From the NCBI RefSeq assembly GCF_003334315.1, contig NZ_QOWR01000024.1: DNA of 64,000 bases. The stretch is one strand, 5' to 3'. The notes beneath the pieces are model-generated. The model ran no database searches and was not told where the DNA came from. It worked only from the letters and a program-made list of their open reading frames with translations. The DNA is from Escherichia coli. Its GTDB lineage: Bacteria; Pseudomonadota; Gammaproteobacteria; Enterobacterales; Enterobacteriaceae. A program made the position numbers and the translations under genes. Every line of letters starts with the position of its first letter. The first letter of the stretch is position 1. Positions 259-8,817 of the stretch are shown here, one piece after another.

Positions 259-2958
259 ATGCGTAAATATCCTTTAAGTTTACTGAAGGATAAAAATATT
301 GTGACTTTTTTTGATTTCTGGGGAAAAACCCGACGCGGCGAGAAAGACGGGGGCGACGACTATCACCTTCTTTGCTGGCATTCGCTGGATGTAGCCGCGA
401 TGGGCTATTTAATGGTTAAAAGAAATTGCTTCGGGCTGGCTGATTATTTTCGTCAATTAGGGATTTCTGACAAGGAACAGGCGGCTCAATTTTTCGCCTG
501 GTTGCTGTGCTGGCACGATATTGGAAAATTTGCCCGCTCTTTTCAACAACTTTACCTGCCCCCTGAACTCAAGATTCAGGAAGGTGCCAGAAAAAATTAC
601 GAAAAAATCTCTCATTCAACGCTGGGCTACTGGTTGTGGAATCATTATTTAAGTGAATGTCAGGAGTTACTTCCTTCATCTTCGCTCTCTCCGCGCAAAC
701 TTAGGCGAGTGATAGAAATGTGGATGCCCGTGACGACAGGGCATCATGGTCGGCCCCCTGATCGTATGGATGAATTGGATAATTTTCTGCCTGAAGACAA
801 AGCTGCAGCACGAGATTTTCTCCTTGAAATCAAACCACTGTTTCCGCTCATAGAGATCCCCGCATTCTGGGATGATGATGAGGGCATTGAACTTATAAAA
901 CACCTTTCCTGGTATATCTCTGCAACCGTCGTGCTCGCAGACTGGACGGGTTCGTCAACGCGATTTTTTCCACGCGTCGCACACCCAATGGATATTAAAG
1001 GTTACTGGCAGAAAACTTTAATTCAGGCTCAAAACGCCTTAACCGTCTTTCCTCTAAAAGCAAAAGTCGCGCCTTTCAACGGAATTAATACGCTGTTTCC
1101 TTTTATTGAGAATCCGACACCGTTACAGCAAAAGGTGCTGGATCTGGATATCAGCCAGCAAGGACCGCAGTTATTTATTCTGGAAGATGTGACTGGCGCA
1201 GGTAAAACAGAAGCGGCGCTTATCCTGGCGCACAGGTTGATAGCTGCGGGGAAAGCTCAGGGGCTGTTTTTTGGTCTGCCAACAATGGCAACGGCCAATG
1301 CCATGTACGATCGGCTGGTCAAAACCTGGCTTGCTTTCTATTCGCCAGAATCCCGCCCCAGCCTGGTGCTGGCACATAGTGCCCGCACATTAATGGACCG
1401 CTTTAATGAATCACTCTGGTCTGGTGATTTAGTCGGGTCAGAAGAACCGGATGAACAAACGTTCAGTCAGGGATGTGCGGCCTGGTTTGCCGACAGTAAC
1501 AAGAAGGCGTTGCTGGCTGAAATTGGCGTCGGCACGCTGGATCAGGCGATGATGGCGGTGATGCCGTTCAAACATAATAATCTGCGGCTTCTGGGGCTGA
1601 GTAACAAAATCCTGCTGGCTGATGAGATCCACGCCTGTGACGCTTACATGTCGTGCATTCTTGAAGGGTTGATCGAGCGGCAGGCGCGTGGCGGAAACAG
1701 CGTTATTTTGCTTTCTGCCACGTTATCTCAACAGCAGCGCGACAAACTCGTCGCTGCCTTTGCGCGGGGTACAGAGGGCCAGCAAGAAGCTCCGTTCCTG
1801 GAAAAGGATGATTACCCCTGGCTGACGCATGTCACGAAATCCGATGTGAACTCACACCGGGTAGCGACGCGCAAAGACGTTGAGCGTAGCGTCAGCGTGG
1901 GTTGGCTTCATAGTGAACAAGAGTGTATTGCGCGTATCGAATCGGCGGTAAGTCAGGGGAAATGCATCGCCTGGATCCGGAATTCTGTCGATGACGCTAT
2001 TAAGGTTCATCGTCAGCTGCTTGCCCGCGGCGTCATTCCTGCTTCCAGCCTTTCACTTTTTCATAGCCGCTTTGCTTTTAGCGATCGCCAGCGAATTGAA
2101 ACGGAAACGCTGGCACGCTTTGGTAAATATTGTAGTTTACAGAGAGCGTCGCAAGTCATTGTTTGTACACAAGTAATTGAGCAAAGCGTGGATATTGACC
2201 TGGACGAAATGATCTCCGACCTGGCCCCTGTTGATTTGCTGATTCAGCGAGCAGGACGATTACAGCGGCATATCCGCGATATTAATGGTCAGTTAAAGCG
2301 TGACGGAAAGGACGAGCGTTCCCCCCCTGAATTGCTGATTCTGGCTCCCGTCTGGGACGACTCTCCTGGCGACGAATGGTTTGGCAGTGCCATGCGTAAC
2401 AGTGCATTTGTCTATCCCGATCATGGGCGAATCTGGCTGACGCAGCGTGTGCTGCGTGAGCAAGGTGCTATTCAGATGCCACACGCAGCCCGGCTTCTTA
2501 TTGAATCCGTCTACGGTGAGGACGTGGTAATGCCGGAAGGATTTGCCCGCAGCGAGCAGGAGCAAGTGGGCAAATATTACTGTGATCGCGCAATGGCTAA
2601 AAAGTTTGTGCTGAACTTCAGGCCCGGCTATGCCGCCAATATCAACGATTACCTCCCGGAAAAACTGTCGACACGTCTGGCTGAGGAGTCTGTTTCCCTG
2701 TGGCTGGCTACCTGTATTGACGGTGTGGTGAAGCCTTATGCCACCGGTGCTCACGCATGGGAAATGAGCGTTGTCAGAGTGCGCCGAAGCTGGTGGAAAA
2801 AACATCGGGATGAGTTTTCTTTACTGGAGGGAGAGGCGTTCAGGCTGTGGTGCATTGAACAGCGACAAGATCCGGAGATGGCAAACGTGATTTTAGTCAA
2901 CGATGACGAAAGTTGCGGGTATTCGGCTACGGAAGGATTGATTGGCAAGGTTGGTTGA
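259..2958 (+). CDS. cas3: Cas3 HD-nuclease/SF2 helicase, type I-E (899 aa)
   Basis: N-terminal HD motifs (HLLCWHSLDVAAMG, CWHDIGKF), helicase Walker A (TGAGKTEAA) and DEIH box (LLADEIHACD); lies directly upstream of the Cascade genes. Confidence 0.93.
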   Translation: MRKYPLSLLKDKNIVTFFDFWGKTRRGEKDGGDDYHLLCWHSLDVAAMGYLMVKRNCFGLADYFRQLGISDKEQAAQFFAWLLCWHDIGKFARSFQQLYLPPELKIQEGARKNYEKISHSTLGYWLWNHYLSECQELLPSSSLSPRKLRRVIEMWMPVTTGHHGRPPDRMDELDNFLPEDKAAARDFLLEIKPLFPLIEIPAFWDDDEGIELIKHLSWYISATVVLADWTGSSTRFFPRVAHPMDIKGYWQKTLIQAQNALTVFPLKAKVAPFNGINTLFPFIENPTPLQQKVLDLDISQQGPQLFILEDVTGAGKTEAALILAHRLIAAGKAQGLFFGLPTMATANAMYDRLVKTWLAFYSPESRPSLVLAHSARTLMDRFNESLWSGDLVGSEEPDEQTFSQGCAAWFADSNKKALLAEIGVGTLDQAMMAVMPFKHNNLRLLGLSNKILLADEIHACDAYMSCILEGLIERQARGGNSVILLSATLSQQQRDKLVAAFARGTEGQQEAPFLEKDDYPWLTHVTKSDVNSHRVATRKDVERSVSVGWLHSEQECIARIESAVSQGKCIAWIRNSVDDAIKVHRQLLARGVIPASSLSLFHSRFAFSDRQRIETETLARFGKYCSLQRASQVIVCTQVIEQSVDIDLDEMISDLAPVDLLIQRAGRLQRHIRDINGQLKRDGKDERSPPELLILAPVWDDSPGDEWFGSAMRNSAFVYPDHGRIWLTQRVLREQGAIQMPHAARLLIESVYGEDVVMPEGFARSEQEQVGKYYCDRAMAKKFVLNFRPGYAANINDYLPEKLSTRLAEESVSLWLATCIDGVVKPYATGAHAWEMSVVRVRRSWWKKHRDEFSLLEGEAFRLWCIEQRQDPEMANVILVNDDESCGYSATEGLIGKVG

Positions 2959-3055
2959 GATGTCTGCGACAGGACTCTCTGAATAGTTGATACACCGAAA
3001 AGGATGGAAAGATGGACAACCGACCTGGGATGGTCTTTTTTACGAGAGGATGCGT

Positions 3056-7607: not shown

Positions 7608-8527
7608 CGTTTGTACCGCTGAGCCCGATCCCGTTAAAAGATCGCACCTCCATGATCTTCCTCCAGTACGGTCAAATCGACGTACTGGACGGCGCTTTCG
7701 TGCTGATCGACAAAACCGGGATCCGCACGCACATTCCGGTGGGATCGGTCGCCTGCATTATGCTCGAACCGGGAACGAGAGTTTCCCACGCGGCGGTGCA
7801 TCTGGCCGCCACGGTGGGGACGCTACTGGTCTGGGTCGGTGAAGCGGGTGTTCGCGTCTACTCTTCCGGACAACCCGGTGGGGCGCGTGCTGATAAGTTA
7901 CTCTACCAGGCAAAGCTGGCTTTAACGGAAGATCTACGCCTGAAGGTGGTGCGCAAAATGTATGAATTACGTTTTCGTGAGCCACCGCCAGCTCGCCGTT
8001 CAGTGGAGCAGTTACGGGGAATTGAGGGATCCCGCGTTCGCCAGACGTATGCATTACTGGCGAAACAATATGGTGTGAAATGGAATGGTCGCAAATACGA
8101 TCCTAAAGACTGGGAAAAAGGCGATGTTGTCAATCGTTGCATCAGTGCTGCCACATCATGCCTGTACGGTATTTCTGAAGCTGCAGTATTAGCTGCGGGA
8201 TATGCGCCCGCTATTGGTTTTATCCATAGCGGCAAACCGCTTTCATTTGTTTATGACATAGCCGATATCATTAAATTTGATTTGGTTGTGCCAAAGGCAT
8301 TTGAAATAGCAGCGAGGCAACCCGCAGAACCAGATAAAGAAGTCAGGTTGGCCTGTCGCGATATTTTCCGTAGTAGTAAATTAACGGGCAAGTTAATTCC
8401 GTTAATTGAGGAAGTGCTTGCCGCTGGTGAAATTGAACCACCACAACCCGCGCCGGATATGTTACCGCCTGCCATCCCTGAACCTGAAACCTTAGGCGAT
8501 AGCGGTCATCGAGGACGCGGCGGATGA
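7604..8527 (+). CDS. cas1: Cas1 integrase (307 aa, GTG start)
   Basis: Highly conserved Cas1 sequence ([43 protein letters not shown]...); GTG at 7604 overlaps the cas6e stop; the track ORF starts upstream at 7568. Confidence 0.92.
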
Positions 8528-8817
8528 GTATGATCGTAGTTGTAACGGAAAATGTTCCTCCACGTTTACGTGGACGGCTCGCTATCTGGCTACTGGAAGT
8601 GCGTGCCGGTGTGTATGTCGGAGATACATCCAAACGTATTCGGGAGATGATCTGGCAGCAAATCTCTCAACTGGCAGGTTGCGGAAATGTAGTGATGGCT
8701 TGGGCGACCAATACCGAGTCAGGTTTTGAATTTCAGACCTGGGGTGAAAATAGACGTATTCCGGTGGATTTGGATGGGTTGCGTTTGGTTTCTTTTCTTC
8801 CTGTTGATAATCAATAA
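8524..8817 (+). CDS. cas2: Cas2 (97 aa)
   Basis: Small ORF overlapping the cas1 stop by 4 nt; N-terminus [26 protein letters not shown] is typical of I-E Cas2. Confidence 0.92.

Follow-up and report, generated by a model that had tools for sequence, protein, structure and literature searches.

An intact Salmonella-like (E1) type I-E CRISPR–Cas operon next to iap in Escherichia coli

Two variants of CRISPR–Cas type I-E (CRISPR: short palindromic repeats that are clustered and regularly interspaced) have been named in Escherichia coli: cas-EK, found in K-12 together with a T-type repeat and leader, and cas-EO, found in O157:H7 together with an A-type repeat and leader (Díez-Villaseñor 2013, PMC3737337). 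The variants were later renamed E2 (K-12) and E1, of which E1 clusters with Salmonella enterica and E. albertii and is taken as the primary variant; an involvement of the insertion sequence (IS) IS186 was described, and the mean guanine-plus-cytosine (GC) content was put at 53.5% in E1 and at 45.6% in E2 (Almendros 2014, PMC3903273). Here we analysed a 64,000-nucleotide (nt) stretch of E. coli DNA (contig NZ_QOWR01000024.1; hereafter the window), in which a first-pass annotation had reported a complete type I-E cas operon of the Salmonella-like rather than the K-12 kind. We conclude with high confidence that this is an intact E1 (cas-E1/cas-EO) type I-E operon, the ancestral occupant of the cysH–iap site, and that the K-12 type is a later replacement. 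The feature is already known and ordinary: the same E1 cassette is annotated as type I-E in thousands of RefSeq genomes, and papers from 2010 to 2014 had already set out how it differs from K-12, that it is linked to Salmonella and E. albertii, and which way the replacement went.

A complete type I-E operon

Open reading frame calls gave eight type I-E cas genes on the + strand of the window, none of them with an internal stop (Table 1). Position 259 is the cas3 start and position 8817 the cas2 stop, matching to the base the bounds given in the first-pass annotation, which had described intact frames with tight or overlapping junctions. From cas3 to cas2, these junctions are a 97-base-pair (bp) gap, a 4-bp overlap, two gaps (11 bp, then 10 bp) and three more overlaps (19 bp, 4 bp and 4 bp). 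The N termini of Cse1 and Cas3 that had been cited (MRKYPLSLLKDKNIVTFFDFWGK, MNSFSLLTTPWLPVRF) were found in the translations. RefSeq starts cse1 at the ATG at 3056, although its frame is open from a TTG at 2987 onwards. A locus with 99.9% identity (NZ_CP019245) is annotated in RefSeq with the same type I-E gene set in the same order, and the cas genes of the two loci are separated by 4 single-nucleotide polymorphisms.

To assign the subtype, each protein was compared with NCBIfam models at their curated cut-offs, and all eight Cas proteins scored above the cut-off of the matching type I-E model. Both signature subunits are present, Cse1 at 611 bits (TIGR02547, cut-off 70) and Cse2 at 99 bits (TIGR02548, cut-off 28.5), and Cas3 is a single chain that passes the HD (TIGR01596) as well as the DExH helicase (TIGR01587) model. 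The models specific to K-12 failed: NF007248 (Cas3) has a cut-off of 569 bits and reached 425, and NF007247 (CasA) reached 111 bits with a cut-off of 576. PADLOC labelled the proteins Cas3e, Cas8e, Cas11e, Cas7e, Cas5e, Cas6e, Cas1e and Cas2e. Inspection of conserved positions revealed H86/D87 of the HD domain, K316 of Walker A (GAGKT) and D455/H458 of the DEIH motif in Cas3; E141, H208, D218 and D221 in Cas1; and E9 in Cas2, with H30 of Cas6e aligning with the catalytic histidine H20 of K-12. By its signature subunits, gene order, Cas3, Cas1e–Cas2e pair and adjoining array, the locus is a CRISPR–Cas system of type I-E.

Table 1. Features at the cas end of the window, with amino acid identity of the encoded proteins to K-12 and Salmonella counterparts
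Feature	Coordinates	Strand	Description	Identity to K-12	Identity to Salmonella
IS186/IS421 (IS4-family) right end	1..75	-	transposase start codon at 20; terminal inverted repeat CAACCCTTAAGTTAGCGCTTATG ends at 75		
native cas3 upstream region	76..258	+	21.6% GC over 92-258; putative cas3 promoter		
cas3	259..2958	+	899 aa; HD nuclease and SF2 helicase; TIGR01587 223 bits, TIGR01596 91 bits	28.8%	70%
cas3-cse1 intergenic region	2959..3055	+	97 bp; K-12 equivalent 414 bp		
cse1 (cas8e/casA)	3056..4618	+	520 aa; Cascade large subunit; TIGR02547 611 bits	20.7%	74%
cse2 (cas11e/casB)	4615..5151	+	178 aa; small subunit; TIGR02548 99 bits	nothing significant (BLASTP against K-12 CasB)	64%
cas7e (casC)	5163..6218	+	351 aa; TIGR01869 439 bits	30.1%	84%
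cas5e (casD)	6229..6975	+	248 aa; TIGR01868 160 bits	35.2%	82%
cas6e (casE)	6957..7607	+	216 aa; pre-crRNA endoribonuclease; TIGR01907 289 bits	27.4%	74%
cas1e	7604..8527	+	307 aa; integrase; GTG start; TIGR03638 382 bits	85.1%	94%
cas2e	8524..8817	+	97 aa; TIGR01873 133 bits	86.2%	94%
CRISPR leader	8818..8912	+	95 nt, 26% GC		
CRISPR array (CRISPR2.1 / CRISPR-I)	8913..9429	+	8 canonical 29-nt repeats, 8 spacers of 32 nt, terminal degenerate repeat		
iap	9450..10487	-	cysD and cysN lie beyond	99.1%	86%
cysD				100%	97%
cysN				99.6%	88%

Variant, prevalence and direction of exchange

Reference proteins were taken from the K-12 MG1655 locus and from a Salmonella enterica contig reached via the Cse1 cluster that NCBI names S. 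enterica. Comparison with both sets, together with the PADLOC subtyping, returned a type I-E operon that is Salmonella-like and not K-12-like, as the first-pass annotation had proposed: Cas3 and the four alignable Cascade proteins are 21–35% identical to K-12, in which Cse2 has no significant match, and Cas3 and all five Cascade proteins are 64–84% identical to Salmonella. Cse1 and Cas3, which it had singled out as strongly divergent from K-12, share 21% and 29% of residues with their K-12 counterparts, nowhere near 90%, and no frameshift or stop interrupts any cas gene. Its remark that Cas1, Cas7e, Cas5e and Cas6e retain type I-E signatures was correct in that the proteins pass the I-E models; Cas7e, Cas5e and Cas6e nevertheless stand as far from K-12 as Cas3 does, only Cas1 and Cas2 being close (85–86%). 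At the nucleotide level, no homology to K-12 was found over window positions 1 to approximately 7630, similarity staying at the background of 35–45% through the end of cas6e and then rising to 65–79% over cas1, cas2 and the leader, between flanks that are both 98–99% identical to K-12. The fall in similarity to K-12 from cas1 (85% of amino acids) to cas6e (27%) could suggest a shuffling of modules. However, protein divergence between E. coli and Salmonella is itself uneven, at approximately 6% for Cas1 and Cas2 versus 26–36% for Cas3, Cse1, Cse2 and Cas6e, so that differences in rate alone could explain the fall and shuffling need not be invoked.

Cse1 places the operon within E1, being 97% identical to that of E. 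albertii and 74–75% identical to Salmonella clusters versus 21% for K-12, with the type of K-12 and E. fergusonii standing apart; homologues from Citrobacter, Klebsiella and Raoultella are 72–77% identical. A scan of contigs for Cse1 by exact 8-residue patterns found E. albertii, Citrobacter, Klebsiella, Gilliamella and Methanosarcinales and no Salmonella, which reflects the limit of such exact patterns, since the protein search found large Salmonella clusters. Further afield, Cse1 homologues from Gilliamella of the bee gut are 43–46% identical to the window protein, and those from Methanosarcinales/Methanoperedenaceae are 37–40% identical over nearly the full length of the window protein, nearer to it than K-12 CasA (21%). 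A Cse1 98% identical to that of the window lies on JAIJJM010000114.1, a 7-kb contig binned as a Collinsella sp. (Actinobacteria) metagenome-assembled genome, which is most likely a mis-binned E. coli contig. Another large cluster of E. coli Cse1, with 711 members, shares only 83% identity with the window protein, indicating that the E1 type holds deep sub-variants, in line with the recombination in the Cascade region reported for B1 strains (PMC3903273).

The prevalence of the two variants was determined in 5,426 complete RefSeq E. coli genomes with the cas3–cas6e block as the query. The window block was present in 2,789 of them (51%; 2,421 at 80% coverage or more) at 90–100% identity, and the K-12 block in 1,187 (22%; 1,115 at 80% coverage or more); every copy of either block was chromosomal and none was on a plasmid. 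Many RefSeq genomes already annotated as type I-E are 99.9–100% identical to the window, and nucleotide identity across E1 spans 90–100%, with the cas3 of O157:H7 approximately 92% identical to that of the window at its 5′ end. The first-pass annotation had assigned the operon to a second I-E lineage found in some phylogroups and shared with Salmonella. The sharing holds, but the minority standing belongs to the K-12 form, from which nearly all of the mechanistic and structural data on "E. coli Cascade" nevertheless derive.

A cas block that lacks nucleotide homology to K-12 and yet sits between nearly identical flanks, at a locus that carries IS elements and at a chromosomal site where exchange of modules is documented (PMC3903273), might be taken for a recent foreign island that horizontally replaced a K-12-like system in this strain; homologous replacement had indeed been raised as a possibility in the first-pass annotation. 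We consider such an origin extremely improbable, the polarity being the reverse, with the K-12 type having replaced the E1 type. The E1 block is carried by half of the complete genomes, never on a plasmid, and E. albertii and Salmonella have an E1-like operon at the same site, in agreement with the earlier view that the operon is native to its place beside iap. The window operon, at 51.2% GC, is close in composition to the remainder of the window (53.4%) and to the Salmonella cas3–cas6e segment (52.9%), in contrast to 44.0% for the K-12 cas3–casE block and 44.8% for the whole K-12 operon. At fourfold-degenerate sites, the window and Salmonella are 35–51% identical in the eight cas genes and 43–54% identical in iap, cysD and cysN; divergence at silent sites is thus about that of the housekeeping flanks, which suggests that the cas genes are about as old as those flanks and that E1 is the resident lineage. 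In cas1 and cas2, the window and K-12 are 28% identical at such sites, which is saturated and points to the K-12 genes as the replacement. Weighing against the argument for vertical descent, fourfold sites approach saturation in the comparison of E. coli with Salmonella as well, and vertical descent is therefore consistent with these data without being decided by them.

The K-12 array points in the same direction. Its iap-proximal canonical repeat is of the GTG type (GTGTTCCCCGCATCAGCGGGGATAAACCG, reverse-complement coordinates 14272–14300), whereas the 12 repeats that precede it are of the GAG type, and this trailer repeat is a relic of an earlier E1-type array. Together with the last spacer and degenerate repeat that K-12 has in common with the window, it fits the published model of an insertion into an E1-type array (PMC3903273). 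Finally, window positions 9340–64000 are collinear with K-12 at 99.0–99.4% identity. A comparison of flanks and cas genes had been proposed as a way of locating a recombination boundary; on the iap side it gave these high identities, and the left boundary lies outside the window. On the cysH side of NZ_CP019245, 98.7% homology to K-12 stops exactly at the start of hok, approximately 1.4 kb upstream of window position 1. Four independent checks (silent sites, GC content, the array relic and the collinear flanks) thus support the view that the K-12-type genes are an import that replaced a resident E1 operon; taken with the prevalence and with the shared site in E. albertii and Salmonella, they indicate that the exchange would have occurred in the K-12 lineage and not here.

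Array, upstream region and predicted activity

The GTG-type repeat (GTGTTCCCCGCGCCAGCGGGGATAAACCG) occurs in 8 copies at no more than 3 mismatches with a 61-nt period over 8913–9368, where the chance expectation is 0, and it is identical to the Salmonella repeat, which upholds the earlier report of a GTG-type array. All 8 canonical repeats start with GTG, whereas K-12 repeats start with GAG; read on the opposite strand, the window repeat is the A-type repeat of cas-EO. When folded, the repeat forms a hairpin of 7 bp closed by 4 loop nt (-15.2 kcal/mol), and a degenerate ninth repeat occupies 9401–9429. The leader is 68% identical to that of K-12 and 66% identical to that of Salmonella, and equals the leader of an E1 strain except for one indel near 8895. 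Among the spacers, the last (9369–9400, GGCGCACTGGATGCGATGATGGATATCACTTG) is, like the degenerate repeat, common to the window and K-12. The seventh (9308–9339), taken with the G of the preceding repeat (9307–9339), agrees at 33 of 33 positions with phage P7, with some records of the P1 family and with Salmonella phage SJ46, the protospacer lying in the upf94.2/lxr region; the match to reference P1 is 88%. The other spacers gave no phage match at E ≤ 1, and Rfam at gathering thresholds returned nothing in window positions 1–10600.

Upstream of cas3, the window starts inside an IS186/IS421 element, the rest of which extends beyond position 1. In the 99.9%-identical NZ_CP019245, the coding sequence of the IS421-family transposase ends at the position equivalent to window 20, and hok, which falls outside the window, lies just beyond the IS; hok/sok and a distinctive intergenic region between cysH and cas3 are features of the E1 variant. 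The element has 39-nt inverted repeats and a 10-bp target duplication (GGGTAAAACC) and is inserted inside a GC-rich palindrome (ACGCGGGGGTAAAACCCCGCGT); homology to strains free of the IS starts at window position 75. Among the 5,426 complete genomes, 333 have the identical junction, and the arrangements already described include one with IS186 inserted upstream of cas3 (PMC3903273). The first-pass annotation had placed an AT-rich, probably silenced promoter before cas3. The base composition agrees with that description, but the native AT-rich DNA extends for only 183 bp, because the IS occupies positions 1–75 and beyond. This segment, which presumably holds the cas3 promoter, is common to E1-type strains and has no homologue upstream of K-12 cas3.

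Judged by family membership, the operon would be expected to provide standard type I-E immunity. The array would be transcribed from its AT-rich leader, and Cas6e would cut each repeat at the 3′ base of the 7-bp hairpin, yielding a 61-nt CRISPR RNA (crRNA) that assembles with Cse1, Cse2, Cas7e, Cas5e and Cas6e into Cascade. Cse1 would then read an AWG-type protospacer adjacent motif (PAM), after which Cascade would form an R-loop and recruit Cas3, whose HD nuclease and helicase would degrade the target, while Cas1–Cas2 would add new units of 33 nt at the repeat nearest the leader. For Cas1–Cas2 of the same variant there is experimental evidence, those of O157:H7 having been reported to integrate spacers with the acquisition motif CWT (= AWG) (PMC3737337). 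If K-12 and S. Typhi are a guide, H-NS acting on the AT-rich promoters of cas3 and cse1 probably keeps expression low, and the cas3 region of the window is probably silenced in its transcription: in S. Typhi, H-NS silences cas3, and the homologous cse1–cas2–CRISPR operon has H-NS and Lrp as repressors and LeuO as inducer (PMC8039139).

Several observations weigh against a working immune system. The array is short, at 8 spacers; the P7 protospacer is flanked by CTG and not by the expected AWG PAM; IS186/IS421 lies upstream of cas3 at a distance of 183 bp from the start codon, where it could change cas3 transcription either way; and a consensus promoter scan of positions 1–9500, which is uninformative for promoters silenced by H-NS, found no + strand sigma-70 site and fewer sites than in shuffled sequences. 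The locus could accordingly be read as an intact-looking dead relic, permanently silenced or defective and kept only by drift or for a role outside immunity. The silence of E. coli type I-E systems under laboratory conditions and their slow spacer turnover, both noted in the literature, would suit this reading, as would the Cas-dependent regulation of porins in S. Typhi (PMC8039139). We nevertheless regard it as unlikely. Across 8.5 kb none of the eight frames is interrupted, and the catalytic residues that were checked are all conserved, which makes long-term neutrality unlikely; one spacer perfectly matches phage-plasmids of the P1/P7 family; and the spacer integration by O157:H7 Cas1–Cas2 speaks for the variant as a whole. 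An intact operon of the E1 type, predicted to act in immunity under low expression, is the reading that we retain.

In K-12, immunity is probably limited by the supply of Cas3. A conjecture that we consider highly doubtful is that IS186/IS421 disrupts or bypasses H-NS silencing of cas3, for instance by interrupting the nucleation region or through outward transcription, and thereby marks a sublineage whose type I-E system is more active than that of other E1 strains. Equally doubtful is the idea that the PAM reading of E1 Cascade differs from the K-12 model; it arises because E1 Cascade has no close counterpart among solved structures, the nearest to the window Cse1 being K-12 CasA, with a weak match (E = 2e-16) to the N-terminal part only.

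Neighbouring genes and comparison with described systems

Downstream of the array, the 3′ half of iap (approximately 9431–9980) is 5.5% divergent from K-12, with 35 differences between 9351 and 9978 and 0 in the next 1 kb. This patch was considered as a recombination boundary between E1 and E2 and rejected, as identity runs continuously from 100% to approximately 93% across 5,419 genomes, and E1 strains such as O157:H7 and O111 are 95–96% identical there. It is a species-wide polymorphic, hypervariable stretch beside the CRISPR array, independent of the cas variant. Elsewhere in the window, rpoS (19480–20154) carries an in-frame internal deletion of 342 bp relative to K-12, with its junction near 19858–19869. 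A 12-bp direct repeat that encodes ALLD stands at both ends of the deletion; the product, with ...RGLALLD|ILADEKENG... at the join, lacks approximately 114 residues from sigma regions 2 to 3, so that the allele is very probably null. In NZ_CP019245, the nearest sequenced relative, rpoS is full length (330 amino acids), which indicates that only this strain or close kin of it carry the deletion.

Compared with described systems, the K-12 operon (cas-E2/cas-EK; Cascade structures 4TVX, 4QYZ and 5H9F) agrees with the window in subtype and architecture, in its catalytic residues, in the hairpin of the repeat and in the period of 61 nt, as well as in the last spacer and degenerate terminal repeat, and its Cas1 and Cas2 are 85–86% identical. 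It differs in its GAG-type rather than GTG-type repeats, in a cas3–casA gap of 414 bp rather than 97 bp, in a GC content of 44% against 51%, and in Cas3 and the four alignable Cascade proteins, which are 21–35% identical; its acquisition motif is CTT only, compared with CWT for the cas-EO variant (PMC3737337). The CRISPR1-cas locus of Salmonella enterica (S. Typhi and Typhimurium) has the same repeat, gene order, overlaps and chromosomal site as the window, and its proteins are 64–94% identical. Its layout is cysJIH-sopD-cas3...cas2-CRISPR-iap-cysDN, with sopD between cysH and cas3 as a difference from the window; its leader is only 66% identical, and Cas3, Cse1 and Cse2 have diverged to 64–74%. 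Closest of all is the E. coli cas-E1/cas-EO system of O157:H7 and most non-B2 E. coli, whose gene set and order, GTG repeat, variant leader, cysH–iap site and GC content near 51–53% are all as in the window, and from which the window operon shows no substantive difference.

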